Below are positions 3,193 to 30,269 of a stretch of 33,269 bases of DNA, piece after piece. Location of the stretch: NCBI GenBank assembly GCA_964618805.1, contig CAZUBM010000022.1, positions 1 through 33,269 of the forward strand, given 5' to 3'. Within the stretch, counting starts at the first letter, position 1; the number at the start of each line of letters is the position of its first letter. The notes under the pieces are model-generated. The model had not been told where the DNA came from. It ran no database searches and worked only from the letters and a program-made list of their open reading frames with translations. This DNA comes from an uncultured Nitrososphaerota archaeon. Its GTDB lineage: Archaea > Korarchaeota > Korarchaeia > Korarchaeales > Korarchaeaceae. The translations under genes were made by a program, and so were the position numbers.

Positions 3193-3377
3193 TAACTAAT
3201 CCCTCTTATAGGGCATCTTTTTCAACAATAATTCTGCTAAGGAGTAAATTGAAAACATTTTTTGATATAGTTTTTTCCCTGCTGCTGTAGCCTATCACTT
3301 ATTCTTATCCAATAATCACTAAGTCCAATAGATTCACAGAGCGAACCATAATTAAATAGTGAGAATCTTTATACAAG

Positions 3378-14014: not shown

Positions 14015-14114
14015 TCTAATGAAACTACCTTCTTGGAGTTTCCCTCTCTAATCGCCCTTAACAGCGATAAGCTTAAGGAAGAGGTTTGAGCTGAGCTCTG
14101 TCAAGCCTAAGAGT

Positions 14115-14538
14115 CTAGTCGGTTATCCTTTTTACGAATGGGATGTTATCGAAGTGCTTATCAAAGCTGTAAACCTCTTTAATACCCTTCTTCTTGCATA
14201 TTATCGAGGCTAACGCATCATTAGGACTTACCCTATATCTCTCCGATATTACAAGCGATTCTTCGTAGTCTCCTCTTTCAACACCACATATCTCCAAGTT
14301 GGTCATCGCTAGCAAGCTTTCTAGTAGTTCCAGACTTTTAGAAAGACCAGATCTTGCTTCAACTATATTTATTATCTCAGATAGGTGGACAACCGATGTT
14401 AGAACTCTCTCGCCTTTATCTACTCTTCTTAGCATCTCTTTAGCCTTCTCCTTAGCTTTGGCTTCTTTTTCAGGTAGCCTCTTTTTTTGGTTTCAAATAT
14501 GCGTACAGAAAGACGGATGAGTCAAGGTACCTAACCAT
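14115..14538 (-). pseudogene. vapC: VapC PIN toxin, frameshifted paralogue of 17293-17715
   Basis: MVRYLDSSVFL start at 14538; A7 run at 14482-14488 where the paralogue has A6; PNDAL and YSFDKHFD motifs. Confidence 0.85.
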
Positions 14539-15574
14539 ACAAGGCCTCCCGAACCTTGTGGACATCTGAGAAGTCTTCTACTTCAACGCGCGCACTTTCT
14601 AATGCCCTTCTCAGCACTTTCTCGAAGCTTTTCTCATCATGAGGTCTTCCTTCATCCATACTCCTTCTTATTTCGGGCCATATTTCTCTGCAATAATCTT
14701 TCAATCCTTTTAGGAGGAGATCACCTCTGAACCAATTGTTAGATACGGGAATCAGTCTATATAGGGTCCTGCGCCACGCTTCTAGCATTGTAAACGGTCT
14801 TAGCATGAACTCAGATGCTGAGAAAACATTGCATTTTCCCTCCCCAATTTTCTTGAGGGAGTTAAGCCATTTAACTCCTTCATCACATCTCATGAGGTGA
14901 TGATCAACTATGAGGCTTCCGCATGAATTTACCAGTTTTGATGCCCTTGAAAGGTAGCTCTTCATGTATTCTCTGTCTAATCTGTAGAGGGAGGGACCAT
15001 CGGCTATTATAAAATCCGGATTTATCCTCTTGGCAGCTCTGATCACTTCCCAGCTTGAAATATCCGCATCTGAGAGGTGCAACAATGTTCCATCTTTCCT
15101 CACGATGGTACCTAGGACCATGGTATTCGATCTTCCTGTGTGAGGAAAGGGACCGATAAACTCCAGCAGGCCATCTCCCACACCCGGTTTAGCTTCAACC
15201 ATTTGATCACCGAACCTCCTCTTTAATGCCGTAAACCTTATTCTCTCTACTCCTCTGCAGAATTTCTCAGCCTTTACCCAAATTCTAGCATCGCTGTTGG
15301 AAGGAAGTACCTCTATTCCCAATTGAAACGGATTTGGATTCAGTAAAGGGATATGATCTCCATGAAGATGGCTTATAATTATATCCTCAGCGCTCTCCCA
15401 TGCGCTAACTATCTTACCTTTAACTTCATCTCCAACGACCGCTTGAACTGGGTGAGGATGAAGATTATAGCGGGAGAATCCCAATGCTACTCCTGGATCT
15501 ATTAATATTCTATCTATGGATGTAGAGAGGCCCCTAACTCCGAGGGTCTCTGTTCCGAGTATCTCTATCTCCAT
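14531..15574 (-). CDS. MBL-fold metallo-hydrolase (UPF0282-like) with a fused antitoxin tail
   Basis: ETLGVRG, IDPGVALG, ISHLHGDH, PH, SD, DHHLMR. The last ~18 aa match the C-terminus of AbrB 17708-17935. Confidence 0.85.
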   Translation of the reverse strand: MEIEILGTETLGVRGLSTSIDRILIDPGVALGFSRYNLHPHPVQAVVGDEVKGKIVSAWESAEDIIISHLHGDHIPLLNPNPFQLGIEVLPSNSDARIWVKAEKFCRGVERIRFTALKRRFGDQMVEAKPGVGDGLLEFIGPFPHTGRSNTMVLGTIVRKDGTLLHLSDADISSWEVIRAAKRINPDFIIADGPSLYRLDREYMKSYLSRASKLVNSCGSLIVDHHLMRCDEGVKWLNSLKKIGEGKCNVFSASEFMLRPFTMLEAWRRTLYRLIPVSNNWFRGDLLLKGLKDYCREIWPEIRRSMDEGRPHDEKSFEKVLRRALESARVEVEDFSDVHKVREALYG

Positions 15575-15890
15575 TCCTTATTACATTCCATTGTTAACTT
15601 AAATGAGTTTGGTCTAAGATTCAGCTAAACAGCACATGGTATGCTCAGTTAAGGGGCAAGTACTGCAGTCATGAGATCAAATCTCCATAGGAAGTTACCT
15701 GGGTTGAATGGAAAAAACCAAAGCTAGCATTATAAAGGGAGGAAGAGGGTAGAAATTCCTCCGCACGATTTTGAAAGAGATGTGCGGATTAGCATTGGTA
15801 GCCGATAGATCAACGACTTGAGCCAAAGAACATGAACGAAGAGTTGAAGAAAAGCTATAATTTATAAACTATAATCTGTTAATTACAGTT

Positions 15891-16097
15891 ATGTCCCAAA
15901 AGACCGTACAGGTAGGAGAAAGCACTTATAGATTACTTAAAAGGCTAAAAAGGAAAATGGGGGCCAGAAGCTTCGGAGAAGTGATTGAGAAACTCGCTCT
16001 AAAGGAACTAGGCATTGACGACAGCATGTTTGGTGTCGATAAGGGGAGGCTCACCCCCTTCAAGAAGGAAGACAGGATGGAGGATAGGACATGGTAG
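15891..16097 (+). CDS. vapB: VapB-family antitoxin
   Basis: KTVQV.ESTY..L..LK...SFGEVI..L; SMFGVD; overlaps the PIN gene. Confidence 0.85.
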   Translation: MSQKTVQVGESTYRLLKRLKRKMGARSFGEVIEKLALKELGIDDSMFGVDKGRLTPFKKEDRMEDRTW

Positions 16098-16495
16098 TGT
16101 TCGACACATATGCCTGGATCGAGTACTTCATCGGGAGTGAGAAAGGACGGAAGGTTAGGGAATTTCTCATAAAAGAAGATGGTAAGACGCCTTCGATAGT
16201 TCTAGCCGAGATAGCGAGGAAGTACTTGAGAGAGGGGTTTGAGAAGGGAGAAATCAGGAAGAGGCTGGAGTTCATCGCCGCCAGAACCGAAATCATCAAT
16301 ATAGACGTGAGGATTTCGATGAAAGCAGCTGAACTTTATCTCAGGCTTCTTGACCACGCCAAGAAAGGGGGTTTAAGGACTCCAAGTTTGGCAGACGCCT
16401 TAATCTATGCCATGGCTTTGCTGAGCGGAGAACGCCTTTTAACGGGAGATAAGCTGTTCAAGGGACTGACTAAAGTGGAATATATAGCAGACTAG
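16091..16495 (+). CDS. vapC: VapC PIN-domain toxin
   Basis: VFDTYAWIEY, LAEI, SLADALI, LLTGDKLF. Confidence 0.92.
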   Translation: MVVFDTYAWIEYFIGSEKGRKVREFLIKEDGKTPSIVLAEIARKYLREGFEKGEIRKRLEFIAARTEIINIDVRISMKAAELYLRLLDHAKKGGLRTPSLADALIYAMALLSGERLLTGDKLFKGLTKVEYIAD

Positions 16496-16570
16496 TTAAA
16501 TTCTTAAGATAAAGTTATTTCCAGCCTTAAGCTTATTCGTGAAAAGCTCCCTTCACGAAAGTTGGTAGAT

Positions 16571-16834
16571 TCATACGCGTCTATATGCTTTTTCCCTTCT
16601 TCTTATCCTTAAAACAACAACCTTTCTTCTCTTCTTATCCACAAGATAGACTATCCTTATGTCGGCAACTCTTACTCTGTAAATCCTTTCTCTCCCTCTG
16701 AGCTTCTCGTATGGAAGGGAAAATGGATCTTCCTCTAAGGAACGTAAAACCTCGATCACTTTCTTCCGAAGCCTCTTTTCCATCAGCTCTAAGTTCTTAA
16801 TTTCTCTTTTCTTAACCTCTACAGCCCAAGGCAA
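16571..16834 (-). CDS. relE: RelE/ParE-family toxin
   Basis: YEKLRG..IYRVRVADIRIVY...RRREKAY. Confidence 0.9.
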   Translation of the reverse strand: MPWAVEVKKREIKNLELMEKRLRKKVIEVLRSLEEDPFSLPYEKLRGRERIYRVRVADIRIVYLVDKKRRKVVVLRIRRREKAYRRV

Positions 16835-16841
16835 GACTTTT

Positions 16842-17033
16842 TCACTCCTCTATTTCTGAAATGGGAACTGTATCGAGCTCTCCTTTTTCGTAAGCTTCGA
16901 TGTCTCTGTCTAGTTCCGCAAGCTCTTCCTTGGTGAGAGAAAAGAAGCCCATGAAGTTTTCTATTCTCTCTGCAAGATGTTCAAGCTCCTTTCTTATTGC
17001 TTTGAGTTCCTTGACGATCTCCTCTAAGGACAT
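16842..17033 (-). CDS. RelB-like coiled-coil antitoxin
   Basis: Small acidic ORF directly upstream of relE; paralogue at 30672-30863. Confidence 0.75.
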   Translation of the reverse strand: MSLEEIVKELKAIRKELEHLAERIENFMGFFSLTKEELAELDRDIEAYEKGELDTVPISEIEE

Positions 17034-17152
17034 CCCTCTTTCCTCGCAAAATATTCGTCTTTTTATTCTTAAAGCCTACTCTCAGACGCCTATAAATAGT
17101 AGAAGAAGTGGTGATTAGCGCAGTCTACAAACTGGAGAGGACATGAGACGAC

Positions 17153-17246
17153 TCTAGGAGCGAAGCCCTAAGGGAACTAATTAGGCCTGGTATAAAGAGT
17201 TTGAAGGGCATGTTTGAGGTAGCAGGGATCGTGATGAAGCTCGAAG
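17153..17246 (+). pseudogene. Internal fragment of an RHH antitoxin (copy of 31508-31601)
   Basis: tctaggagcgaagccctaag...gtgatgaagctcgaag aligns with 31508-31601. Confidence 0.8.
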
Positions 17247-17292
17247 TTCAAGGACCTCTAACGCCATCGATGTCTAATACTAAACCAAAAAG

Positions 17293-17715
17293 TTAGTCAA
17301 TTATCCTTTTTACGAATGGTATGTTGTCAAAGTGCTTATCAAAGCTGTAGATCTCTTTAATACCCTTTCTCTTGCATATTATTGAAGCCAAAGCATCGTT
17401 AGGACTCACTTTATACCTCTCCGCTATTACAAGCGATTCTTCATAGTCCTCACTTTTGACTTCATCTATTTCCAAGTTAGCCATCGCTAGCAAACTTTCG
17501 AGAAGTTCTAAACTCTTAGAAAGACCAGTTCTTGCTTCAACTATGTTAATTACTTCAGATAAATGAACAACTGAAGTTAAGACGTTCTCGCCTTTATCTA
17601 CTCTTCTTAGTATCTCCTTAGCCTTCTCCTTAGCCTTTGCTTCTTTTTGCGATAACCTCTTTTTTGGCTTCAAATACGCAAACAAAAAGACGGAGGAGTC
17701 TAGGTATCTAACCAT
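17293..17715 (-). CDS. vapC: VapC PIN-domain toxin
   Basis: YLDSSVFL, HLSEV, PNDAL, YSFDKHFD. Confidence 0.92.
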   Translation of the reverse strand: MVRYLDSSVFLFAYLKPKKRLSQKEAKAKEKAKEILRRVDKGENVLTSVVHLSEVINIVEARTGLSKSLELLESLLAMANLEIDEVKSEDYEESLVIAERYKVSPNDALASIICKRKGIKEIYSFDKHFDNIPFVKRIID

Positions 17716-17935
17716 ATAAGGTCCCTCTTACCTTATGAACATCTGAGAAGTCTTCTACTTCGATCTCTATTGCGTCGAAAAGATCGGAAAGTTTCAACCT
17801 CTTTCTTAAGGGTCTAATTAAGATCTCCTTATCGCTTATCTTAACCATTATGACCCTCTCACCCCAATTTTTCCTCCAATCAGAAGGAATTGTAATTCTT
17901 CCCATTTTATCTAAATTTCTCAAAATGACTTTCAT
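17708..17935 (-). CDS. AbrB/MazE-type antitoxin
   Basis: LDKMGRITIPSDWR...ILIRP. Confidence 0.88.
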   Translation of the reverse strand: MKVILRNLDKMGRITIPSDWRKNWGERVIMVKISDKEILIRPLRKRLKLSDLFDAIEIEVEDFSDVHKVRGTLYG

Positions 17936-18238
17936 TTTCCAAAATGATTAGAAAATGGTAAATATAAATATTTCAGAATCATTCTTAAGGATTCGATTGA
18001 GCACTGATATAAGGAAGCAGATTTCTTTTCTTTGTTTTTCAGCGCGCTCACGCGCCGACTCTGGGCTTGCCAAAAAAAGGCAAGTGGGTTCAGAGTGCTA
18101 GAGCTGAGAGATTATTGAAGTCAAATGATTCCATCTCGTACTGTGAATAATGAAAGATCTATGCATTGTAAACCCTCAAATCCATTGTGCGCATCAGCTT
18201 CCTTTCTGGTCACTATTATTCTCTTTCCCTAATTGTAA

Positions 18239-18385
18239 TCACTTTCTTTTCCAAAGCAACAGAATTATTACAAATGCGGCAACAACAATCCCGCTGATGG
18301 CTGGAATGACTAACTTCATTTTAAATGGCGAAGGAGACGGTGATAGTGAGGGTGCTGGTTGAGTTGGAGATGGAAGAGGGGTCTG
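18239..18385 (-). pseudogene. C-terminal Pro/Ser/Thr linker and membrane anchor of a surface protein (fragment)
   Basis: TPLPSPTQPAPSLSPSPSPF + hydrophobic helix + WKRK; the upstream part of the ORF is antisense of duplicated DNA. Confidence 0.55.
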
Positions 18386-18591
18386 AAGAAGAGTTGGGAC
18401 TTCAAACAGGAGATGATTGTAACATTCAGCTACCTGATTACCTAATCTAGATCTAGAGATATCTCTCATCATTAAAGTCATTCATTATTCTTATTGAAGA
18501 AAGTTTAAGCCGTTTCTGAGAAAGGGTTAAGAGCATTATAATAGACGTTAGAAAAGAAAAAAGAACTAAGCGTATCCTGGAGAGGATCCGT

Positions 18592-19242
18592 TTGATTTCA
18601 AGCGTACTTATAGGCCTTGGGCTTTGGCTGCTAATTTTCCTGCCAAGCTCTGCTATAGGTGGTCTCCTGTCGAAAACGAGGTTAAGGAAGAACGCTGCCT
18701 TAGTGGGTGCTGTTGTTCAAGTGTTGTTCATTGTTCTTTCCATTCTTGTAGTGCTTTTCCTCCTTGGAGCTGACTTCAAAAGTTTTGGGTTCAAGGTAGA
18801 TGTGTTTCACACGTTGAACTCGTTAACGGTGTCGCTCCCAATAGCCTTATTGCTGGCATTTCTATCAAGCCTTTTGACTAAGTCGGAGGCGTATAAGCCT
18901 CGCTTTCTTCCCGAGAACTTCCTCTTCTTAGCGTTGCTTGCATTGTTGCTGGCCCCTCTTGCAGAGGAGCTTGTCTATAGAGGCGTACTTGAGGGCTACC
19001 TTCTTAAGAGCACCAGTACTTGGGTTGCCATTGCTCTACCAGCAGCTCTCTTCGCTTTGCAACACATAACTCCATTCTCATCAGCTCCAAGAAAGGTTCT
19101 TGTATTAGTAGTTGTTAACGCGCTAGTGCTTGGCATTCTGGCAGGATACTACAGAGCGGCTGGTCAGTCCATTATGCCAGCGATAACTGTTCATGCAACA
19201 TTCAATTTGGCCGGCATCGTGGTAGAGAAGGTCTGCGCTTAA
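18592..19242 (+). CDS. CPBP/CAAX (Abi) intramembrane metalloprotease
   Basis: APLAEELVYRG, LFALQH, HATFN motifs; multiple TM helices. Confidence 0.92.
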   Translation: MISSVLIGLGLWLLIFLPSSAIGGLLSKTRLRKNAALVGAVVQVLFIVLSILVVLFLLGADFKSFGFKVDVFHTLNSLTVSLPIALLLAFLSSLLTKSEAYKPRFLPENFLFLALLALLLAPLAEELVYRGVLEGYLLKSTSTWVAIALPAALFALQHITPFSSAPRKVLVLVVVNALVLGILAGYYRAAGQSIMPAITVHATFNLAGIVVEKVCA

Positions 19243-19314
19243 ATTCCTAGCGCCCCCTCCTGTACTAGAGCCTAACCCTCCCAAGTTCGTGGTCGCACAG
19301 AAGAAATCTGGCTC

Positions 19315-19968
19315 CTACCTGCCAGAGCCTGGGGAGGACCTTGACCCTTTCTTCAGCTTCAAGATTCCCAGCTTCTCAAGGATGCGCAGGATCTTCTCCC
19401 TCTCCCCCTCCTCGAAGGGCTCCAGCCCCTCGTAAATGGCCCTCCTGTCCACCTTAATTATTCCAAGGTCCGAAAGCTCTTTTATCAACATAAGCGTCTC
19501 GTAGTCGCTCCTCCTGCCCATCCTGGCCTTCTGTATTATGTGATCCTCTATCCTCATGACCCTTATCTCGGTCCCCTCCACCTCCACCCTCAAGGCCCTC
19601 TCTAGGCACTTCTCGGGTATGTAGATGTCGAGCACATTTGCAAGAACCTCTATTGTTCCTGAGCCCTCCTCCAGGCTGAACCCTATAACCCCGGTTCCGA
19701 ACTCGGTAACGCCAAAGCTCCAGCCTAGCTCCTTGCACACCTCATAGAAGAGCTCCCTTTCCTCCATCGGGCTTGTTCCGGGGATGAACACATCAACATC
19801 CTTTGTCCTCCACTCTACTCCGTAGCCGACGGATAGCACCATGTTCCCGACGAGCATGATCTCGTATCCCCTCTCTTTCATGGCCATCGCCAAGAGGGAA
19901 AGGGCCTTCAGTCTTGCCTTCTCTTCAGCTCCTCCACTAACTCCCTTTCCTCCCTCAGATCCCTGCAA
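19315..19968 (-). CDS. Pol-beta-family nucleotidyltransferase (DUF2204/AbiEii-like), putative type IV TA toxin; start uncertain
   Basis: MLVGNMVL...RTKDVDVF, IEVL, EDHIIQKARMGRRSD. Confidence 0.8.
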   Translation of the reverse strand: MQGSEGGKGVSGGAEEKARLKALSLLAMAMKERGYEIMLVGNMVLSVGYGVEWRTKDVDVFIPGTSPMEERELFYEVCKELGWSFGVTEFGTGVIGFSLEEGSGTIEVLANVLDIYIPEKCLERALRVEVEGTEIRVMRIEDHIIQKARMGRRSDYETLMLIKELSDLGIIKVDRRAIYEGLEPFEEGEREKILRILEKLGILKLKKGSRSSPGSGR

Positions 19969-20471
19969 ACGCTCACCCTTTCAGCCATCTCCCTAACCCT
20001 CCTCCCGTCCAAGAAGAACTCTCTAACGAGGTAGCGGAACATTAGCTCCCCGTAGCTCAGTCCTGAAGCCAGGAAGGTTGCAGCTGCAACGTGAGGAGGA
20101 GGAACAGGCACCTCGACACCGTATACCTCTGCCTTCGCCCTGGTTAGCCTAAGCCAGACCTCTGGCACCCGGAATACGTGGACTAGGGGGTACTCCCTCT
20201 CAGGCTCTTTACACGTGAGGACGAAGGGGGTGAGCATGCTCACTGGGGCTCTGGGATATAGGGAAGTGTGGACGACGGCAAAGGGCTGCTTGACCTCCCT
20301 CGAGGTTCTCGCCAATGAGGCCGCAACGAACTGTATTGGCGTCGGCTTCCCAACGTAGATGCTCCGCGCGCTACCCCCCTTCCTCCTCGTCCTGTAGATG
20401 TAGTAGTACCTGTATTCCTTGACTGTTCCGTCCCTAAGCCTCTTCCTGATGAGCTTCTCCGCTAAGTGCAT
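19908..20471 (-). CDS. Putative cognate antitoxin/regulator with a basic beta-sheet DNA-binding N-terminus
   Basis: Overlaps the NTase; N-terminus KRLRDGTVKEYRYYYIYRTRRKGGSARSIYVGK; same GC-rich composition as the NTase. Confidence 0.6.
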   Translation of the reverse strand: MHLAEKLIRKRLRDGTVKEYRYYYIYRTRRKGGSARSIYVGKPTPIQFVAASLARTSREVKQPFAVVHTSLYPRAPVSMLTPFVLTCKEPEREYPLVHVFRVPEVWLRLTRAKAEVYGVEVPVPPPHVAAATFLASGLSYGELMFRYLVREFFLDGRRVREMAERVSVCRDLREERELVEELKRRQD

Positions 20472-20678
20472 CGAGTTTGCACTACTTTTTCATTTATTAA
20501 ACTTTATCTTTTCCTTAAAAAAGATAAATTGGGATCTCTGAATAATATTTCACATAAACGAAATATGGAAACTTATGCAGCGCACGTTAGTAAAGAGGAG
20601 CCAGTTCTTGGGGTCTTTATGAGGAAAGAGAGGAGCTACAGGATGCTTACCCTAGGGATCTCAGCGCGCGCGAATTGA

Positions 20679-21999
20679 GAGGAGAGAGTCGAGATAGTTA
20701 AGACTGTTGAAGAGTTTGAGGCCGATCCTCAAGCTTTCTACAAAAAAACACGAGAAAAAGCTGAAGGAACTAAGGGAAAGGATCATTAAGACGCAAGAAA
20801 TCCTACCTAAGGTTGAGATGAGTGAGTCTCTCATCAGGAAGGTTGCAGAGGTGTGTGCTCAGCTTGGTGTCAGCGACAGAGCTGAGATCACGATCGTTAG
20901 AACTGCTAAAACAATAGCTGCCTTTGATGGAAGAACTGAAGTAACTGAGGAGGACATCAAAGAGGCTACGGAATTTGCCCTGCCCAACAGGATGCGTAAA
21001 AGACCATTCGAGAAAGTTCAACTGCGGCCGATTTCACATAACCACCAGAGTAGGAAAGACAATAACAGGCAAGACCACAAGAGCGACGAGGGAAGGTCTA
21101 ATGCGTCCAGCCATAGTGGTAATGAGAGGGAGAGTCCGAGCGGATCTGGGTTTCATCCTGGCAAAGAGAGGGTATTCGGCATAGGTGAGGTCCAACGCGT
21201 CAACATAGGGACACTTCAACACAGAAGCGAGGTTAAGGGCGGAGGTCGGAGGGTTAGGGTTAGATCAAAGGACAGGAGAGGGCTCTACGTCTCAAGCTGT
21301 ATCCCGAGGTCTGATCTGATGGACATAGCCTTTGACGCAACGCTCAGGGCTGCCGCACTCCGCAACAGGGGGTTGGGTTGTATCACGATAGAAAAAGAAG
21401 ACATCCATGAAAAGGTACGCTACAGCAGGGCTCCTTCCCTTGTGATATTCCTGGTTGATGCAAGCGGCTCGATGGCCGCAATGAGGAGGATGGAAGCTGC
21501 CAAGGGTGCAGCCATATCTATCCTTAACGATGCCTACTTGCATAGAGATCAGGTCGCCTTCATAGCTTTCAGGGGGAACTCAGCGGAGGTTCTCTTACCA
21601 CCAACAAGGAACCTAGGGCAGGCAGTAAATCTTTTAGCTGAGCTCCCGACTGGAGGTAGGACGCCCCTGGCTGCGGCTCTACTTCAGTCAGCTGAACTCA
21701 TAAAACTTCAGAAAATTAGGAAAAGAGACGTTAAGCCAGTTGTGGTGTTGATATCAGATGGAAAGGCTAATGTCCCTCTCAGAGCGGAGGGTGACATTAG
21801 GGAAGAACTCATCGAGCTTTCAGGCTGGCTTAAGAGATTAGGCGCGAACGTCATAATACTTGACACCTCGCCTAACAACGCCTTGACCTTCGCTCCGAAC
21901 TACTTGACTGACGTAGCTTATGCAAGCGGAGGCCAGTACATCAGGCTTGAGGATGTGAGTGAGAGTAGTATCTATGGGGTTTTGAGACAGGTGCTTTAG
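20679..21999 (+). pseudogene. Mg-chelatase ChlD/BchD-like protein, 5'-truncated (AAA lid + vWA; ORF 20707-21999)
   Basis: EERVEIV...FEADP in the upstream frame, RAEI..RTAK.IAAFDGR, ALPNRMR, DATLRAAA, FLVDASGSM MIDAS, TGGRTPLA, ISDGKANV. No Walker A. Confidence 0.85.
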
Positions 22000-22264
22000 A
22001 TAGCGAGACTGGCGCGCTAACCTAACAATCTAACGAAATCCATGCAATTGTACCGACCAAAATGGAAAAATTGCCAAACTAAGAATAGAATACTTGATAT
22101 CTGGGTATGAAACGAAAAGTAAGGAAATTACCGAGCGCGCTATTTCGCGACCTCCTTCAGGAGCTCCTCCCAGTCCCCTGGCACGAGCTCCCTCTCTGCC
22201 CTGTCCTCGAGGATGTGGTAGAGCTCCGGGGTGTCGCGCTAAATACAGCGCTCTGAGGAGGGAT

Positions 22265-22584
22265 TTGGACCTTCTTGGCTCTAGAATTCTTGCTCCAGAG
22301 ATACTCCGCGTTTTTCGCTGTCTCGGAACGAGCGACGCCCTTACCGTGAACGAGCTCAGGGAGAAGGCCGAGGTAGGGGCCAACTTCGTGGCCAGGCTCA
22401 TCGCCATACTGAAGGACAGGGGGTAGTGGAGGTCAGGAGGGATCCCGAGGACGGGAGGAGGAAGATAATAGCCCTCACTCTAAAGGGAAGGGAGCTCCTT
22501 GACGCCCTAACAAACCTTAAGCTAATCCTAGACAATTTGGACTTTCAATCTCCCCTCGCCGCAGGCGGTCCGGGGTCTCGATAA
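22265..22584 (+). pseudogene. MarR-type winged-HTH regulator, frameshifted
   Basis: LTVNELREKAEV...LKDRG / VEVRRDPEDGRRKIIALTLKGRELL across a G5 run at 22419-22423. Confidence 0.7.
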
Positions 22585-22690
22585 GGGAGGGCACGCGCTA
22601 AAATTAACTTCCCATAGTATGATTCGCGAGAATATGATTTGAACTCTTTGGCAGTTTGAACTCTAGAGTGCGCGCGCTATCCTCGTGAAA

Positions 22691-22884
22691 TCATTTCGTG
22701 CTCACCTGCTCCTCTTGATACTCAATTAGAGCCCTTTTTATTGACTCTAAGATCTCCTGTAGCTCTGATCTTCCCAGAGTAAATGTAAAATTAATTCATT
22801 TTCTTCAAGGAGGAAAGCAAGTTCGAGAAGCTTCCTTCTAAGTTCATCTATCTTGTGGATTATGGAGATGATCTCAGCACTCAT
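22691..22884 (-). pseudogene. Degenerate small coiled-coil antitoxin-like gene
   Basis: MSAEIISIIHKIDELRRKLLEL... then, frameshifted, ILESIKRALIEYQE; lies between two GCGCGC sites. Confidence 0.35.
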
Positions 22885-22915
22885 GACTTCCACGCCTCCA
22901 GAGCGCGCGAAACTC

Positions 22916-23320
22916 TTAGTACAGAGACCCTGGATCCACCCTTTCTATCCCCTCAACTTCCTCGTAGGCCTTGTCAAACGACAGCATTTTGCCATCCGTA
23001 AGCAAAGCTGTGGCCGCATAGTGGGAGTCGAAGAAACCAAGGCCGAACTTTCTCCTCAGCCTTACAGCAGTTAAAACAGTTTCAGGGTTTACGGGAAGGA
23101 ATCTCAAGCCAGGGATTGCTGCAATGGCCGAGACATCCCTCTCCAGCTGATCCTCCCTCCCCCTGCTTTTGTATATAAGTTCCATTTCAAGCAGAGCCGC
23201 GCTAGAAACCTCAACCTCAATCTCCCTTCTCATGATCTTCTCAAATAAGGCTCTAGCTACCTCATGGTTTGGATCCTTTTTATTCAGCAACGCGAAGAGG
23301 ACGTCGTTCTCAAGTATCAT
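22916..23320 (-). CDS. vapC: VapC PIN-domain toxin
   Basis: ILENDVLFA...DPNH, LLE, FFDSHYAATA, SFDKAY. Confidence 0.9.
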   Translation of the reverse strand: MILENDVLFALLNKKDPNHEVARALFEKIMRREIEVEVSSAALLEMELIYKSRGREDQLERDVSAIAAIPGLRFLPVNPETVLTAVRLRRKFGLGFFDSHYAATALLTDGKMLSFDKAYEEVEGIERVDPGSLY

Positions 23321-23574
23321 TTCCCAGCCTCCTCCTCAGCCTGTCTTTCAGCCTCCTTCCTAAGCTCTGAGAAGGGGACGTCCGTTGTGAACGCGCCGTC
23401 AAGGATCTTAAGAGGATCCTCGGGTAGCGGTATTACCTCAAGCCTCTCCCTGATTGGTATTAAAAGGACCCTCTTCCCTATCTTCAGCCTCTCCCTTATC
23501 CCCTTTGGGATGAGGATCCTTCCTCGAGAATCGACCTCAACTACAACCGAGTTCTTTACCCCTATCTTTCCCAC
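23317..23574 (-). CDS. AbrB/MazE-type antitoxin
   Basis: VDSRGRILIPKGIRERL. Confidence 0.9.
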   Translation of the reverse strand: MGKIGVKNSVVVEVDSRGRILIPKGIRERLKIGKRVLLIPIRERLEVIPLPEDPLKILDGAFTTDVPFSELRKEAERQAEEEAGK

Positions 23575-23892
23575 ATTATTGGATTGAATGGGAACATATT
23601 AAAGTTTACCTATGTAGTGGGAAAATTTATCATAGGTGGGAGATGGGTTCTGATGCAATCCCCTACCCTGCTCTGCTCCTTGCCTACGCTGAGCAGTTAT
23701 CCAGAAGAGATTGTAAAAAGGATTTAGGGTTGAAATCATTCCTAAACCTGCAAGAATATCGAAAAAGGAATTCTTAAAGATCTTGAGAGAGAAGTAGAGC
23801 TTCTAATATATCTGCAGCCTTAACACAGCTTAATTATCTGGATAAGGAGTTCAAAATCCCTTTTTTGGCTTTTTTCAATAAGTGTATTAGAG

Positions 23893-23930
23893 TTTTGTAT
23901 ACTTTTTATGTAAGATTCTCGAATACAAAA
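23893..23930 (+). promoter_or_regulatory. TATA-like box flanked by an 8-bp inverted repeat (likely TA autoregulatory operator)
   Basis: TTTTGTAT (23893-23900) and ATACAAAA (23923-23930) flank TTTTTATG just upstream of ATG 23940. Confidence 0.55.
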
Positions 23931-23939
23931 TGAGTTGAC

Positions 23940-24173
23940 ATGAGCGACGTATTAAGCATACGAGTCCCGAAAGATGTAAAAGAACGCCTTAGAAAGTACA
24001 AGGACTTTAACTGGAGATCTTACATAGTAGAGATGCTTGAAAGAAAGCTAAGGGAGCTTGAACTTCGGGAAATTGTTGAGAAAATAGATGAGCTTAACAG
24101 AGATCTTGAGCCGTCCAAGGTAGCCAGCTGGAAAATGATAAGGGAGGACAGAAATGCTCGTTCTGGACTCTAG
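23940..24173 (+). CDS. vapB: RHH VapB antitoxin
   Basis: VLSIRVPKDVKERL...NWRSYI...IREDR. Confidence 0.88.
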   Translation: MSDVLSIRVPKDVKERLRKYKDFNWRSYIVEMLERKLRELELREIVEKIDELNRDLEPSKVASWKMIREDRNARSGL

Positions 24174-24582
24174 CATATTTGCCAGCATTGTAGTCAAAGA
24201 TGAGTTCTACGAGGAGTGTAAAGAGCTTGTCATGCTGCCGTCTGCCACGCTAGACCTTTCCTTTGCTGAGTCAGCAAATGTGCTTTGGAAGCACGTGCAC
24301 CTGCTTAGGAGGATAGCCAAAGAAGAAGCGGTGAAAAGGGTTGAGCTTTTAACTGCTTTAGTAAGATCTTCTGATGTCCACTCCTCAGGGGATTTCATGG
24401 TAAAGGCCTTGGAAATTGCCTTGGAGTGCAGAATAACGGTTTACGACGCGCTCTTCTTGGCTCTTGCGATGAAGCTTGGGGCTAAGCTAGCCACTACGGA
24501 TGAAGGACTTTATAACAAGCTCAAGGATACCAAGTACTCTAAATCTCTCCTTCTGATTGGAGGACGCTCGGAGATCGAATAA
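24154..24582 (+). CDS. vapC: VapC PIN-domain toxin
   Basis: VLDSS, ESANVLWK, ITVYDALFLALA, LATTD. Confidence 0.92.
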   Translation: MLVLDSSIFASIVVKDEFYEECKELVMLPSATLDLSFAESANVLWKHVHLLRRIAKEEAVKRVELLTALVRSSDVHSSGDFMVKALEIALECRITVYDALFLALAMKLGAKLATTDEGLYNKLKDTKYSKSLLLIGGRSEIE

Positions 24583-24860
24583 CATGGACAAACGTCTTCG
24601 CCTTACAGACTAGGATTCAGTTTTTGTTGAAAAAAGGAACAGTGCACAAGCGTATATTTAAGTTCATTCTCATCACTGCTTTGACGAACAGAGGGTTTCT
24701 GTTCTAGTTTAAGCTTATGGGTTCTTAAGGAAATAAAGAGCACGAAATCGCTTTAGTTTTTCAGCTCAAGAGATTAGTTATCCTTTTTCGAATGAAATGA
24801 TGTCAAAGCGCTTATCAAATATGTTAATTCTTTCAAACTCAGGAGCAAGAAGGGCTTTTA

Positions 24861-25292
24861 TTATCTAATCACTACCTTCACTTCCATTCTCTCAAAGTGC
24901 TCCTTGTCCGTAGAGGCCACATCAGCTGGAAGGTACCTGGCTATTGCAGCTACTAATATGTCTGAAAAGGGAACTGGTCTTCCTGATGCTTTTAGCTTAG
25001 CATCTAGCTCCAGAGCTTCAAGGAGAAGCTCTTGGCTCATCCAGACAACTCGTCCCAAGGACTCCACTGCCTCCTTTCTGCTCCTCAGCTCCTCCGCTCC
25101 AGCACCCCTTCCGACCTTGTGACCGTAAAGGTACTCGTACAAAGCTATCCAAGGTACGACCACTTCCTCGTAAGGAGCTAGGAGGTTGGCCAGCTCCTCC
25201 CTTCCTCTATCCAGCAGGTCTATTAGGAAAGAGGTGTCCAAGACCAGCTTACCACCATTCCCTTCCCGAGACTTCTGAGACTGTTCTCTCAA
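24861..25292 (-). CDS. vapC: VapC PIN-domain toxin (true start uncertain, near 25258)
   Basis: VLDTSFLID, YEYLYG, PFSDILVAA, STDKEHF. Confidence 0.88.
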   Translation of the reverse strand: MREQSQKSREGNGGKLVLDTSFLIDLLDRGREELANLLAPYEEVVVPWIALYEYLYGHKVGRGAGAEELRSRKEAVESLGRVVWMSQELLLEALELDAKLKASGRPVPFSDILVAAIARYLPADVASTDKEHFERMEVKVVIR

Positions 25293-25488
25293 CCTTCTCG
25301 ACCTCCTCCTCCGGTAGTTTCGTCCTTTTGATTAGCTCCAGAATGAGACCTTTCCTCGTTTTCCTATAAACCTCTATGAGTCTATCTATGGTCTCGCCGA
25401 GACTTCTGGCATTCATCATCTCTTTTACTATCTTTAGCTTCTCGTAGGTCTCATCCCGGACGGATATCACCTTCAAGCAGTTCACCAT
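25249..25488 (-). CDS. vapB: VapB-family antitoxin
   Basis: KVISVRDETYEKL...SLGETIDRLI. Confidence 0.85.
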   Translation of the reverse strand: MVNCLKVISVRDETYEKLKIVKEMMNARSLGETIDRLIEVYRKTRKGLILELIKRTKLPEEEVEKVERTVSEVSGREWW

Positions 25489-25848
25489 TTCTCTATATTA
25501 CTATATTAGTATATTAACATAGAGCTATGAGTTGTTCGAAGGTCATGGCTTAGTGCTTTCGGGCGCTCCATCTCAGGTGAATTACAAGCTAGCTTCGCGA
25601 GTGCAAACTTCTCTAAGTTAAACGCTTTAAAACTGAAGAAGCACCTTTAACATCTTAGGTGAGTGATCATCCCTATTGACCTGCGTTTTATCTCCTCCGA
25701 TTCTTAACTGCTCATCTTAGGGATATTGGCCTTAGCAATAAGCTTCTCATGCTTATGACTCTCAATTGCTCCCAGTCACTTCCTCTTTTCCTCGTTGAGG
25801 CACTCGTTATCCAGACCATATTCTCTGAGCTGAAGGATCATTGATGGT

Positions 25849-26010
25849 TTAATGAGAGCGCGCTCTTACCAACCTCACAGCTCCTGTAGGGCAAACGGTA
25901 GTGCATAAACCGCATCCAAAGCACTTCTCCTCATCAACTAGGCACTTGTCCCTGACAACGCTCCTGGCCTTAAATACGCAGCGCTCTATACAGGCCCACA
26001 CCCGATGCCC
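25849..26010 (-). pseudogene. 4Fe-4S ferredoxin-domain fragment
   Basis: Not in the ORF track. Reads CIERCVFKA...VDEEKCFGCGLCTTVCPTGAVRLVRAR and ends on GCGCGC at 25858. Confidence 0.75.
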
Positions 26011-26065
26011 TTTCAGAACATTTATATAATCTCGGAAATTTTCATTAATTCTGAGGAATTAAGTT

Positions 26066-26308
26066 ATGTCGGAGATCGTTCTTAAAGTTGGGAAGAGGGG
26101 AGAAATCTATACGAGTAAGGAAATAAGGGAGAAGACTGGAATAAGGGAAGGAGGTAAAGTAAGAGCTGTTGTGAAAGGCAAAAAACTCATAATAGAGGCA
26201 CTGCCATCAATTGAGGAGGCGATATCAAACTGTTTGGTTGAGATAACTCCAGAGGAAGCCGAAAAGCTAAGTGAAGAGGCTCAGAAAGAGGAAGGAATCT
26301 ATGGATAG
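26066..26308 (+). CDS. AbrB/MazE-type antitoxin
   Basis: KVGKRGEIYTSKEIREKTGIREG. Confidence 0.88.
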   Translation: MSEIVLKVGKRGEIYTSKEIREKTGIREGGKVRAVVKGKKLIIEALPSIEEAISNCLVEITPEEAEKLSEEAQKEEGIYG

Positions 26309-26783
26309 GCTTCTGCTGGACACAACTTACTTGCTTCCGATATTTGGAGTTAGAGTAGATCTCAAAGGATTTGAGACGATGTTTCCCTTGCTGTTGGATA
26401 AGTATCCAGTGGTTTACAATCCAATTTCGATAGTCGAGGCCAAGTTTATCGTGCTCAGATTATCAAAAAGGCAGTCTCAAAAGAGGAAATTGATCTTGGA
26501 AAGATTTAGAGAGGGGCTCAAAATCTTATTGAACGATGAAAGGCTTTCCCAGACCATAATAACGAACTCTGATGTGGAGGAGATAGCTGATAAGCTTCTG
26601 TCAGAAGCTGGTATTAGGGACTACTTTGACAGGCTGATCTACTCGACTGCAGCCTATTTCAGCACTATTTTATTGACGGAGGACGAAGCTTTGAAGGGAA
26701 TAAATTTAGAGGATCTTCCATGTCCAAGTAAAGTGATAAAATGGAGTGAATTAGCTAAATTCCTTGTTAAACACGAGAAGTGA
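26301..26783 (+). CDS. vapC: VapC PIN-domain toxin
   Basis: LLLDTTYLLP, SIVEA, DYFDRLIYSTA, LLTED; ATG at 26301 overlaps the antitoxin end. Confidence 0.88.
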   Translation: MDRLLLDTTYLLPIFGVRVDLKGFETMFPLLLDKYPVVYNPISIVEAKFIVLRLSKRQSQKRKLILERFREGLKILLNDERLSQTIITNSDVEEIADKLLSEAGIRDYFDRLIYSTAAYFSTILLTEDEALKGINLEDLPCPSKVIKWSELAKFLVKHEK

Positions 26784-26937
26784 ATCTTTTCGATCTTCCT
26801 CCTGAAATAAAACCGCCTATAGATGCTTGGTCGGAGCGTTGCAAGGAGTAATTACTCCTTTCTTAAGCTCGCTAATGCGGCCTAAACAATTAATGGAAGT
26901 TCCACGCCTACCTCTTTAGATGTCTGTTGAGTTCTTC

Positions 26938-27062
26938 CTAAAGCCTTTGTTTTAACCACTTGCTATACATTTCGAACGTTTCCGGTGATATAGGATCCAC
27001 AACAGCTATTCCTTTGACTCTTCTCACAAGCTCCTTGTCAATGCTATATACAACCGAGGCGC
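26938..27062 (-). pseudogene. PIN-domain C-terminal fragment
   Basis: ASVVYSIDKELVRRVKGIAVVDPISPETFEMYSKWLKQRL*. Confidence 0.6.
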
Positions 27063-27594
27063 TATAAGTCTTAGCCGCGCGCGCTAGCCTAAATAACCTT
27101 CTTTTCGGAACGAGAGCCCTCTACGAGGTGGTAAAAAGGGTGATGAAATAAATAGAGTTAGCCACAATCATATTTGGTTGAAATGAAAGTAGTCGACTTG
27201 AACAAGGACAATATGGATGATCTCATATATTTGCTCCTATAGGTTGCTCTTTGATGAAAGACAGAAGAAGCTAGTAGGGTACTGATTTTTAAGCCCGCAT
27301 CTCGTAACGGTCAAAAGCCTCCATACTTGTTTTGCCACTATTCCATCCGTATAAAAGCTTGAATCGTTCAAAACACCCAAAAATTATTCAATGTAAGTTC
27401 TTACACCATTTTCATTGCTTTTGAATGAATAGAAGTAGCCTTCTTTACACTGATGTAGTATCGTCATCTTGATCGATTGTAAACCAAAGAAGTTCTACTT
27501 TGAAGATTCGGTGGTTTGCTTCGTTTGCGATGTAGGTGATGCTTGTTTTCCGTAGCGCGCACTCATCCTTTTCCCTATCCCTCATTTTACCTCC

Positions 27595-27702
27595 TCATAC
27601 CAACTTTTTCTGGTCCACCCTCTTCATCCCCTCAACTCCCTCATACGCCTCGTCGAAGGAAAGAATCCTACCATCTGTGAGCAAAGCTGAGGCGGCGTAG
27701 TG
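27595..27702 (-). pseudogene. VapC C-terminal fragment (paralogue of 22916-23320)
   Basis: HYAASALLTDGRILSFDEAYEGVEGMKRVD versus HYAATALLTDGKMLSFDKAYEEVEGIERVD. Confidence 0.8.
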
Positions 27703-27901
27703 ATAGTCTTGGGCTTAATCCCACCATAATCGGCGAAATGCTAGATCAAGACAAGGGCAGATATATGAAACAGAAAGGGAAGTTAGTTCGATTTCCTCTT
27801 TTGCTGAGGATCCATATTTGAAGCTTATTTCCTGACCTTCTTATTTGACTGTTTGAGACGACATTGTTCATTCTCTGAACACTAATAGCTAAGAGTAAGA
27901 G

Positions 27902-28141
27902 GTGAAGTGTTCAGCCCTGAGAAGGAACCATTATAGTTCTAGACCTATCCAGTCTCTTCGTACTGGTAGCTGCGTTTTGATAGGCATATTGATAATAATG
28001 CTGATTCTAAAGATAGTGACGTTCTTAATTCCTCCAGCTGTAATTGCGGCTGCTGTTTACTTCTTAACGAAGGACGTTAAGCTGGCAGGATTGGCCTTTC
28101 TAGCCATAGATATCTTAGAGACCTTTACTAGATCCAGATAG
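27902..28141 (+). CDS. Small membrane protein or gene fragment
   Basis: Hydrophobic C-terminal half; start uncertain. Confidence 0.35.
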   Translation: MKCSALRRNHYSSRPIQSLRTGSCVLIGILIIMLILKIVTFLIPPAVIAAAVYFLTKDVKLAGLAFLAIDILETFTRSR

Positions 28142-28217
28142 CCAAAAATCCTAGTAAAGAGCTTTAACACATAACTGACGGCTTTGCATTTTTATCATTC
28201 ACCCGGCTGTATTCGAG

Positions 28218-29594
28218 ATGTCTATAGATAAAGTCAACAAATTCATTGAGGATGAGTTAGACAGGTTTCTTCAGCAACTTTCCAGACTAGTTCAGCAACC
28301 AAGTATTGCGGCAACAGGAGAGGGAGTAGAGGAGTGCGCAGAACTTCTTGTAGAGATTATGAAGGAGAATGGTATACCAGCACGCACGCTACCAGTGGAA
28401 GGAGGACCTCCTGTCGTGTATGGCGAACTAAGAACCCAATCGGGATCCACTCCATCAGGAAGAAAACCCCCTACTCTCATTTTCTACGATCACTACGATG
28501 TTCAGCCACCAGATCCTCTTGACGAATGGGAATCTCCGCCCTTTGAACCTCAAATTAGAGATGGCAAGATATACGGTAGAGGAACGTCTGACAACAAGGG
28601 AAATATAATCTCTAGGATACATGCAGTTCAGGCCTTTCTTTCTGCAATTGGAGATATCCCAGTCAACGTGAAGTTCTTTGTTGAGGGCGAAGAAGAGATA
28701 GGAAGCCCTCACCTCCCACCATTCATTGATAAACACAAAAGCCTATTCAAGGCAAACTGCGGAATTTGGGAGTTTGGAGGGGTTGATCACGAGGGAAGAC
28801 CGAATATTTGGCTTGGTTTAAAGGGAATGCTATACGTGGAGCTTAGAGCAAGAGGAACAGCCATAGACACACACTCAGCAAGGGCGCCAATAATTCCTAA
28901 TGCTGCTTGGCGACTAGTTTGGGCTCTGAACATCTTGAAGGACCAGGATGAGAGGGTGTTGATAGAGGGGTTTTATGATGATGTCTTAGAGCCAACTAAG
29001 AAAGAGCTAGAGCTTATAGAGAAGATACCTTACCCAGAAGAGATTGTAAAGAAGGATTTAGGGTTGAAATCATTCTTAAAGAACCTAACTGGACCAGAGC
29101 TGGTAAAAACATTGCTTTTGGAGCCTACTTGCACGATATGCGGTATTGAGTCGGGATACACGGGGGAGGGATCGAAGACAGTACTCCCATCAACTGCTAT
29201 GGCCAAAGTAGACTTCAGACTGGTCGCTAATCAACGCCCGAAGGACATTTTAGAGAAGTTGAGGAACCACCTAGATAAACACGGGTTCAATGACATCGAG
29301 ATAATTGCACGAAGTTTTCTTGAGCCAGCCAAGACCCCAGTTGAGGACGACTTCGTGCAACTTGTGATCAGAGCTGCTGAGGAAGTTTATCAGAAGGAAG
29401 CTATCGTCTACCCAACGTCAGCAGGGTCAGGACCTCTTTATTTATTCAGAAATGTCCTAGGAATTCCCATGGTGTCAGTTGGAGTAGGATATCCCTTGTC
29501 AAGAGCTCATGCACCAAACGAACACATAAGGATAAAGGATTATTTGTTAGGTACCAAGCTTATTGCAAAGATCATGAGTGATTTAGGCAAATAA
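28218..29594 (+). CDS. M20 family metallopeptidase (DapE/ArgE/dipeptidase-like)
   Basis: YDHYDVQP, GRGTSDNKG, EGEEEIGS, DTHS, AHAPNE. Confidence 0.93.
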   Translation: MSIDKVNKFIEDELDRFLQQLSRLVQQPSIAATGEGVEECAELLVEIMKENGIPARTLPVEGGPPVVYGELRTQSGSTPSGRKPPTLIFYDHYDVQPPDPLDEWESPPFEPQIRDGKIYGRGTSDNKGNIISRIHAVQAFLSAIGDIPVNVKFFVEGEEEIGSPHLPPFIDKHKSLFKANCGIWEFGGVDHEGRPNIWLGLKGMLYVELRARGTAIDTHSARAPIIPNAAWRLVWALNILKDQDERVLIEGFYDDVLEPTKKELELIEKIPYPEEIVKKDLGLKSFLKNLTGPELVKTLLLEPTCTICGIESGYTGEGSKTVLPSTAMAKVDFRLVANQRPKDILEKLRNHLDKHGFNDIEIIARSFLEPAKTPVEDDFVQLVIRAAEEVYQKEAIVYPTSAGSGPLYLFRNVLGIPMVSVGVGYPLSRAHAPNEHIRIKDYLLGTKLIAKIMSDLGK

Positions 29595-29802
29595 TGCAGT
29601 ATATCCAGGAATTCACACGCTAAACCGGCATAGTAGCTGTTACGTTTTGCTCAAAGCTATTCTCACATGTGTTTTTCATTAAGCCACCTACGAGGACTCC
29701 TTACAATCTTTGATCAGAGAACATTGCTCTTTAGCCATGTTAGCTGACAAGGATCTGCAATCCAGTTATTTAAGGGCTTGTAGTTAAGAATTAGGCGATA
29801 AA

Positions 29803-29940
29803 ATGACTGTAAAGAAGGTTTTTGTAGGTTTGGATCTTTTGACCCTGGTCCTAGCTGCGTGCGGTTGCTGTAACGTGCTTACAGCCGAAATCCGCGGATC
29901 CGCTTTTCCAATAAATTCAGCATATAGTGTTAGAGCCTAG
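29803..29940 (+). pseudogene. 5' stub of an exported or lipoprotein gene ending at GCGCGC
   Basis: MTVKKVFVGLDLLTLVLAACGC... is signal-peptide-like; its TAG overlaps the GCGCGC at 29940. Confidence 0.4.
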
Positions 29941-30059
29941 CGCGCTAAGTGGTCAAAAGATCGAAGATCCTTCGTAACTGGTTGTTCATGTTTATTGCTT
30001 TTAACACGTTTTGAATTTCTTACAAAGAAATAAATATGAAGAAGGAAGAATAAGGTCCG

Positions 30060-30269
30060 ATGCTAGTTAAGTTTGAAGTTTACAACGATGGAGAGAATTG
30101 GTGCGCTCGAGGAATAGGGGTGAGCATCTTCACCCAAAGTAAGACCCTAGATGAACTTATGAGTAATCTTAAGGAGGCCGTATCCGTCCACTTCGAGGAT
30201 GAGTTGAAAGAGGGCGAGGAAATAAGTATATTAGTGATTTCTGAGGTAAAGGTGCCTCCTATTGCCTAA
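30060..30269 (+). CDS. hicB: HicB-like antitoxin
   Basis: WCARG..IFTQSKTLDELMSNLKEAVSVHFE. Confidence 0.88.
   Translation: MLVKFEVYNDGENWCARGIGVSIFTQSKTLDELMSNLKEAVSVHFEDELKEGEEISILVISEVKVPPIA

Follow-up and report, generated by a model that had tools for sequence, protein, structure and literature searches.

We analyzed a stretch of 33,269 bases (the window), contig C22 of the metagenome-assembled genome (MAG) G000, and the short palindrome GCGCGC that recurs within it at genes and gene fragments. G000, described in this analysis as a Bathyarchaeia-type MAG, comprises 2,176,148 bases in 62 contigs with a G+C content of 42.5% and is 93.7% complete. For comparison we used four relatives of the same genus (G001–G004, 71–90% complete), an independent metagenome run (X3) and a further run (X6); the genomes were metagenome bins throughout. 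The source runs are labelled hydrothermal vent metagenome. A reverse gyrase was found in G000, a hot habitat is therefore likely, and the host is likely a heat-loving archaeon.

Between 14.5 and 30 kb the window holds what we regard as a dispensable island of toxin-antitoxin (TA) modules beside restriction and nuclease genes (Table 1). All 15 GCGCGC matches of the window lie here, at 12 loci between 14588 and 29945, and none was found elsewhere in the 33,269 bases; a locus is a run of (GC)3 or longer and may hold several overlapping matches. An initial annotation of this DNA had listed 12 loci within 14.5–30 kb and none before, and our recount agrees, with the same coordinates. It had also counted GCGCGCGC three times, which is correct (20664, 22670, 27077), and had called AGCGCGCT frequent; the latter is present at only four of the 12 loci (18042, 22135, 25858, 29940), so the wording was generous. 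Dinucleotide-preserving shuffles of the window contained 1.31 +/- 1.24 matches (maximum 4), and none of 100 reached 15. The excess in the island, which the annotation had proposed to check on a Markov background, holds against the rest of the genome both for matches (15 vs 1.2 expected, Poisson p 4e-12) and for loci (12 vs 0.84, p 1e-10). No other 15.5-kb stretch of the assembly is as dense in loci as the island; those that come next hold 6. In total G000 has 129 loci with 182 matches, compared with 110 expected under a maximal-order and 47 under a 4-mer Markov model.

Five of the 12 window loci are demonstrable joints, namely 14588, 20664, 27077, 27555 and, as a special case treated below, 25858. 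At 14588 the high-scoring segment pair (HSP) 14192–14584 corresponded to the paralogue at 17370–17761 (83%), and G004:C38 2035–2514 to 14103–14584. The intact AbrB paralogue reads on where the copy has AAC-GCGCGC, and the earlier claim of a breakpoint at which the intact paralogue lacks the motif is thus borne out. The MBL-fold open reading frame (ORF) on the other side (347 aa) matched NCBIfam NF003288 with residues 1–282 to profile positions 1–288 of 303; in a six-frame protein search of the island fragments against G000 and fetched loci, an MBL paralogue on C3 was the sole addition among the matches listed. The joint at 20664 is two-sided. On the left the homology of the stub stops at GGATCT, 2 nt from the motif, and G004 then diverges, while on the right a 9.5-kb X3 contig matches 20672–22310 and is unrelated upstream. 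The ChlD-like ORF (430 aa) retains Pfam AAA_lid_2 (45–103) and VWA_2 (246–353), and the motif does stand just before its truncated start, as had been noted. At 27077 homology ends at 27075 (G003:C132) and starts at 27086 (G001:C27), in agreement with the gene tail that the annotation saw beginning here, and the motif is present in neither relative. The ORF at G003:C132 2333–2563 reads on past the break at 27075, and the ORF at G001:C27 6733–8211 (493 aa) ends ...ISLNNLLFGTRVLYEVVKRVMK*. The VapC and peptidase remnants point apart, as after loss of a shared upstream region. At 27555 the break in the homologous C12 gene lies 408 and 230 nt from the ends of that ORF. Joint support, which the annotation had asked for, was judged from contigs of assemblies and not from raw reads: contigs of the probable source run from a second assembler bridge 11 of the 12 loci at even depth (21–36), and 25858 falls into a gap (25821–25902).

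Table 1. GCGCGC loci of the window and the genes and gene fragments next to them
Feature	Position	Strand	Remarks
Decayed VapC copy and last ~18 codons of AbrB-type antitoxin	14103..14587	-	Paralogue of 17281-17761, cut at motif
GCGCGC at joint of AbrB tail and 3' end of MBL-fold gene	14588..14593		Paralogue and G004 homology ends at 14584
MBL-fold gene (PRK04286-like)	14594..15574	-	Frame crosses motif (Ala-Arg) into AbrB tail
AGCGCGCT between divergent genes	18042..18047		Common to G004; no breakpoint known here
GCGCGC in intact ORF 19908-20471	20366..20371		Ordinary coding occurrence
5' stub of small gene	20584..20663	+	Ends 2 nt before motif; aligns with G004:C38 ~612-686
GCGCGCGC, two-sided joint	20664..20671		Filler CA + (GC)4, 10 nt
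ChlD-like gene without AAA+ N-terminal module	20672..21999	+	AAA lid and VWA domains remain
GCGCGC 12 nt past chlD stop	22012..22017		Inside X3 contig
AGCGCGCT	22135..22140		Inside X3 contig
GCGCGCGC beside small ORF 22747-22893	22670..22677		No informative homologue found
GCGCGC 8 nt past stop of VapC 22916-23320	22903..22908		Common to G004
C-terminal 47 codons of 4Fe-4S ferredoxin-domain gene	25849..26001	-	Compared with G001:C230 ORF 2208-2924
AGAGCGCGCTCT between converging gene ends	25858..25863		AGCGCT + one GC beside 9-nt microhomology joint GCTCTTACC
3' part of VapC (PIN) gene	26934..27075	-	Cut at motif; G003:C132 2336-2476
GCGCGCGC, two-sided joint	27077..27084		Filler C + (GC)4 + T, 10 nt
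Last 21 codons of second M20 peptidase gene (SLNNLLFGTRALYEVVKRVMK*)	27085..27150	+	G001:C27
Fragment homologous to interior of C12 gene	27469..27549		HSP C12:46644-46724, 88%
GCGCGC 5 nt past fragment end	27555..27560		Paralogue ends at 27549; not claimed in initial annotation
Signal-peptide stub of lipoprotein-like gene and 76 nt without assigned origin	29803..29939	+	G004:C164, G002:C18
TAGCGCGCTA after stub	29940..29945		Relatives' homology stops 77-84 nt before motif

The relatives G001–G004 carry pieces of the island in a different arrangement. Recurrent island breakpoints without the motif were found at 26012–26016, 26793–26796, 27705 and 29856–29863. At 27705, where a 100-nt VapC fragment lies just upstream, homology starts for three contigs of two relatives, for one X6 contig and for a minor contig of the source run. 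At 22310 the source run and X3 each have a contig that departs from the window sequence and continues alike in both; an alternative arrangement exists there in the population.

The decisive comparisons of long and short forms came from regions whose flanks are 95–99% identical. At C15:19259 (flanks 98% identical) G004 has 326 bp where G000 has exactly GCGCGCGC. The same filler replaces 1589 bp of G004 and 1587 bp of G002 at C15:23116, where it stands before a 4-nt microhomology, CATA, that a simple deletion would have used. The roles are swapped at G004:C87:5229, with A-GCGCGCGC-T in G004 and 692 bp retained in G000. At G001:C223:524 a piece of 275 bp inside a PIN gene is gone and GCGCGC is found at the joint, and at C2:9372 a total of 641 or 643 bp is replaced by 15 nt containing GCGCGC. 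X3 has an extra joint, ...CTAGCGCGCGCT before 23734, that is not in the window.

The long or unbroken forms have no (GC)3 or longer run at the break (C15:19259, C15:23116, G004:C87:5229, 20664, 27077 and the paralogue cases). Even GCGC is absent at either edge in the three cleanest long forms, the sole exception being the right edge at G001:C223. The lost pieces are ordinary coding DNA (a membrane protein, CoA-transferase-like genes, an acetyltransferase, a PIN domain), they are unrelated and without common ends, and open frames of the long forms cross both edges. The long form is therefore ancestral, and the events are deletions and not excisions of one element. Where polarity could be read, the events were deletions of 275, 326, 641, 692 and 1589 bp, and one case was a tandem partial duplication. 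Joints carry 8–10 nt of filler between flanks that share 0–4 nt, and the filler arose independently in three genomes.

When G000 was compared with 225 kb of fetched relative DNA, we counted 17 colinear long/short events of 100 bp or more, five of which had (GC)3 or longer at the joint; the regions were picked for motif richness, and this share is biased upward. The 90.7 kb of aligned DNA contained 64 indels of 3 nt or longer, not one of them a plain (GC)n insertion; the filler therefore accompanies rearrangement, and the same count speaks against a tiny insertion element. The GC scar is not on all deletions in the genus: compared with window positions 28157–29220, G002:C18 (L015) has lost 1064 bp inside an M20 peptidase gene, with a clean joint without filler.

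Breakpoints were also scanned blind to the motif, by self-BLAST of G000 and inspection of 14 bases around each of 1444 paralogue-HSP ends. The top real 6-mers were CGCGCG (13 vs 0.64 expected) and GCGCGC (15 vs 0.92), an enrichment of 16–20x, followed by CGCGCT and AGCGCG. A paralogue HSP was flush with the motif, that is, ended at most 6 nt from it, at 16 of the 129 loci and spanned it at two. The same loci shifted by 120–200 nt gave 1–4 flush and 7–17 spanned, and 1000 random points gave 9 and 58, respectively. In 10 of 17 paralogue comparisons the unbroken copy has a called ORF across the break, with both ends of the ORF often hundreds of bases away. A glycosyltransferase, for example, is cut mid-domain at the motif and its frame ends ...EAMAR* through it. 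These data support an association of the motif with joints between gene fragments that far exceeds chance, both across G000 and in the sister genomes.

The 129 runs comprise 56 GCGCGC, 35 GCGCGCGC and 38 other forms up to (GC)5. Their sole flank preference is a T outward on 147 of 258 sides, then A, then A or G; TA flanks the run on 67 sides, 48 of which read TAA or TAG. No longer conserved word and no conserved flank past +/-2 nt was found around the 129 loci, and target-site duplications or extended palindromes were near chance. Scored with called ORFs of at least 90 aa, 50 of the 129 loci lie within ORFs, compared with 83% of random points, and 79 (61%) outside. There is no gene-side preference (5' vs 3', 42 vs 37; random points 448 vs 331). 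The ratio of AGCGCGCT to its reversed control was 22:2 in G000 and 25:2 in G001, 4:3 to 10:3 in the other three members of the genus and mostly 1–3:1 beyond it; the signal was unconvincing in 35 other genomes of the class. The outlier G046 (14:1) was set aside as ordinary coding sequence, since 13 of its 14 sites lie in frames of at least 100 codons.

Based on these results we would rather explain the (GC)3–5 runs as scars of illegitimate end joining with a self-complementary GC filler, mostly at deletions, and give this reading a probability of about 0.5. A stretch would be lost (in one case duplicated) and the ends rejoined with 2–15 nt of mostly alternating G and C, of which GCGCGC and GCGCGCGC would be the commonest forms. 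As to the making of the filler, we infer that a candidate polymerase or terminal transferase extends 3' ends with G/C. Any two such tails could anneal by (GC)n self-pairing, and pairing by GC only would be stable at growth temperatures as high as reverse gyrase suggests. Once the gaps were filled and the strands ligated, (GC)3–5 would remain, its length being set by the overlap. Scars and gene stumps would have accumulated in the island because deletions are tolerated there. Tentatively, the genus might even possess a dedicated healing of breaks by (GC)n tails or linkers that zips any two ends at high temperature, leaves a datable and mappable scar and drives gene decay in dispensable islands, although on this wider proposal we would sooner bet against than for.

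The initial annotation had favoured a capture or shuffling system. Such a system is unnecessary because deletions leave stumps of neighbouring genes; the events found are deletions of resident DNA and one tandem partial duplication, without shared ends. Its further suggestion of ends rejoined by end joining fares better as far as the rejoining is concerned, whereas the motif would have been made at the joint and not be a pre-existing cut site. Because the parents lack the motif, a recombinase core and a rejoined restriction site, both also suggested there, are excluded as general explanations.

Several points weigh against the end-joining scars. All data are metagenome assemblies, and the loci are of mixed origin (coding substitutions, a tRNA end, a contig overlap, GCGC plus GC). 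Two of the 16 flush loci are no real joints, C8:34742 being the 5' end of a tRNA-Leu gene and C2:55 a 55-nt contig overlap, and C2:7175 is a coding substitution and not a scar. The same is true, judging by the alignment, of 20366: its G003 orthologue is colinear without a gap and has CTCACC at the motif bases (CTCCTCACCTTATC vs CTCCGCGCGCTACC in the window), and the annotation had rightly placed this locus inside an undisturbed gene. At 25858, put by the annotation at the end of a ferredoxin fragment, homology edges do lie at 25862 and 25870. However, G001:C178 has AGAGCGCTCT followed by a different gene and the homology of G001:C230 begins at GCTCTTACC, by which comparison the motif here consists of an older GCGC to which one GC was added, next to a microhomology joint. 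The G001:C230 ORF (239 aa) ends ...LVRAI*, the window fragment ...LVRARSH*.

Six further window loci (18042, 22012, 22135, 22670, 22903, 29940) are without informative comparison, and three to five of them are common to relatives and so older. G004:C38 1901–4289 corresponds to 17148–19539 at 98%, with the motif at G004 position 2795 (18042), and G004:C38 4472–5333 to 22852–23690 at 92%, with the motif at 4523 (22903). Among the differences listed for the X3 contig none falls at 22012 or 22135, a further 599 differences being outside this list. The annotation had taken 22012 and 22903 for breakpoints as well; the coordinates are right, but 22903 lies inside the segment shared with G004 and 22012 inside the X3 contig. 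The stub it described before 29940 is real, with homology ending at 29863 (G004:C164) and 29856 (G002:C18) where the relatives read on, 77–84 nt short of the motif (Table 1).

Of the 17 colinear events counted, 12 lack such a filler, and most of these overlap by 5–19 nt. The right-hand homology at C2:9372 may start again 7 nt to the left of the motif. The T flanks and the TAA or TAG on TA-flanked sides are not accounted for by tailing alone. Ku (PF02735), with a positive B. subtilis control, as well as RVT_1 and Prim-Pol were not found in the 93.7%-complete G000. The sole PolX-like gene is frameshifted, and a PolX thumb is present in one of 40 genomes of the class. No polymerase known to us adds G and C in strict alternation, so that a templated or oligonucleotide origin of the filler may be the better fit. 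The PolX-like gene, a small nucleotidyltransferase gene at C3:1280–1828 in a mobile- or viral-looking stretch, is split over three frames. It was rejected as the filler enzyme, being broken and without counterpart in the sister genomes, and so offers no basis for a genus-wide trait.

The main rival, which we consider unlikely, is the footprint of an unassembled cut-and-paste element. Such an element would have (GC)n-type ends, perhaps target TA, and be excised imprecisely with flanking DNA, leaving its terminal bases as (GC)3–5. The simplest source of a constant filler would be a constant template, the run lengths differ by single bases, and the T and TA flanks would fit. Five loci lie at most 100 nt from contig ends, where ~0.7 would be expected (an estimate from contig number and length), and MAGs usually lose multi-copy elements. 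G000 also contains an intact TnpB gene and two DDE transposase matches, one of them a short fragment. Against this, G000 has no repeat family above 300 bp at 85% identity or more with more than two copies (MAGs drop repeats), and where a motif lies near a contig end, the sequences beyond it are unlike one another. Neither target duplications nor extended inverted repeats exceed chance, and simple footprints were missing among the 64 small indels. The TnpB gene (C58) was rejected as a candidate enzyme, the nearest motif (C10:70267) being more than 1 kb away. Motif pairs 27–176 nt apart were rejected as a mini-element, the inner sequences being unrelated. At the end of C10 and on C58 a radical-SAM gene apparently has a new 5' end at a GCGCGC joint; the 54 nt upstream of this joint match the start region of a C26 gene at 91% identity. 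The intact TnpB gene (461 aa) converges on the 3' end of this radical-SAM gene.

That pre-existing (GC)n tracts, as Z-DNA-prone fragile sites or as an intergenic signal, attract breaks or mark gene ends appears rather improbable to us. The tracts at 18042, 22903 and 25858 are common to G004, and those at 22012 and 22135 probably to X3; the motif at 25858 developed from an AGCGCT, and in two genomes this AGCGCT directly follows different genes. The motif is often flanked by stop codons, and most loci lie outside called ORFs. However, the long form has no tract at either edge in the clean two-sided cases, breaks lie deep in unbroken ORFs, and neither a preference for one gene side nor a longer conserved word was seen.

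A recombinase core site, or an integron-like platform capturing cassettes at GCGCGC, is largely refuted and very improbable. The mosaic island differs segment by segment between sister genomes and is TA-rich like integron arrays, and the genome does encode tyrosine recombinases on other contigs, the last codons of one of them containing the motif. Yet the partner sequences have no core at the break, and the annotation was right that the window holds no recombinase: none was found in Pfam scans of 20 ORFs, and PF00589 gave five matches, four over cut-off, on contigs C35, C4, C29 and C5 only. No attC-like inverted repeat lies at the motif loci. Among 16 inverted-repeat pairs in 14000–30500 a single 15-nt pair flanks a locus (29940); it does not extend and is likely due to chance. 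The segments at the motif are stumps and not whole cassettes (a chlD-like gene without AAA+, 21 peptidase codons, 47 ferredoxin-domain codons), and the events are deletions of resident DNA. C35 (80–2551) probably holds an integrated element, in which an Orc1/Cdc6-like ATPase is the neighbour of a tyrosine recombinase (414 aa, C-terminal zinc ribbon); a GCGCGC is read through within the last five codons of the recombinase (...LLARKE*).

Equally improbable is a restriction enzyme that cuts GCGCGC or GCGC, the filled-in ends being ligated and the site regenerated or lengthened. Filling and rejoining of GCGC-type ends would yield (GC)3 or (GC)4, a type II system is present at 6644–8337, and the right-hand parent at G001:C223 carries GCGC at the joint. 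But GCGC is absent at the break in the three cleanest cases and at 20664, the long forms, the independent sample and the paralogues have no motif at the break, and no specificity could be assigned to the window enzyme from homologues or PDB. In the pair at 6644–8337 the methylase (PF01555; best PDB match 2zie) has TSPPYW, SPPY being typical of N4-cytosine methylases. The 238-aa gene overlapping it matches PADLOC REase_II (E 5e-23) and has no Pfam or PDB match. Its homologues are unnamed or labelled 'restriction endonuclease'.

An assembly or library artefact, with chimeric contigs joined at a low-complexity palindrome, is the least probable explanation: all genomes are MAGs, C2:55 and C10:70267 abut 55-nt contig overlaps, several loci lie at branch points of the assembly graph and the joints 14588, 20664, 27077, 27555 and 29940 were seen solely in the probable source sample, but the second assembler bridges nearly all loci, G004 has the same joints with 2–8% divergence, separate joints of this kind occur in G001, G004 and X3, and the palindrome is far shorter than any assembly k-mer.

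The joints share features with several known systems. In non-homologous end joining (NHEJ), junctional nucleotides from neither parent accompany deletions (TdT/Pol mu in vertebrates, the LigD polymerase domain in mycobacteria), and TdT additions are G/C-rich. Ku/LigD joints resemble those described here in their little or no homology and added nucleotides. Unlike NHEJ fillers, the archaeal filler is a near-constant, self-complementary (GC)3–5, Ku was not found and the PolX-like gene is broken. The highly iterated palindrome HIP1 (GCGATCGC) of cyanobacteria is likewise a short G+C palindrome over-represented in one lineage; it has thousands of copies, genes included, and has been reported at the ends of a deletion, where it was present in both parents. 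In contrast, we found 129 loci in 2.18 Mb, most of them outside ORFs, and a motif absent from the parents. Integron arrays show a comparable variable, TA-rich array with segmental gain and loss between close relatives, but here there is no adjacent integrase or attC structure, stumps replace cassettes and the motif arises at deletions. The TA footprints of Tc1/mariner and imprecise excision of P elements leave few constant bases, sometimes with flanking loss. Constant bases at the joint and the TA excess next to the motif are similar; no element, terminal repeat, target duplication or simple footprint was found.

Deletions with short insertions at or beside microhomologies are also typical of Pol theta end joining with templated insertions according to the excerpts of PMC5068794 and PMC4912351, and we found microhomology beside the filler at C15:23116, 25858 and C2:9372. 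Pol theta inserts copy nearby sequence and vary per joint, whereas the archaeal filler is the same motif everywhere and has no local template. Small palindromes created at rearrangement joints are described in the excerpt of PMC3734650 for double-minute amplicon junctions in tumour cells, a eukaryotic cancer context. In the passages returned by a full-text literature search, no description of a (GC)n filler or of the motif in archaea was found.

A sequence-specific scar would record end-joining events, namely the break sites, the amount lost and the regions that tolerate loss, and would point to a GC-tailing or linker-inserting enzyme activity. How chromosomes are rejoined in archaea without Ku is poorly known, and uncultivated groups such as the Bathyarchaeia are not directly testable. 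The patchwork of gene stumps in the TA/defence island would be explained without capture machinery, and pseudogenes and deletions in these genomes could be called with the motif as a marker.

Upstream of the restriction pair, 1872–6068 contains a PD-(D/E)XK (Cas4-like) nuclease, a HerA-type ATPase (DUF87), which also has a weak match to PADLOC mad8, and a NurA-like gene; these could be a defence module or end-resection proteins. At 11703–13679 a 658-aa ORF matches type IIG restriction-methylase models and Eco57I solely in their middle and C-terminal part (positions 581–852 of a profile of 1100), and may be a truncated gene at the island edge. Finally, the reverse gyrase match of G000 (C1:179830–182964) consists of three adjacent pieces in different frames, two of them with an internal TGA, which may reflect frameshifts, a split gene or assembly errors.

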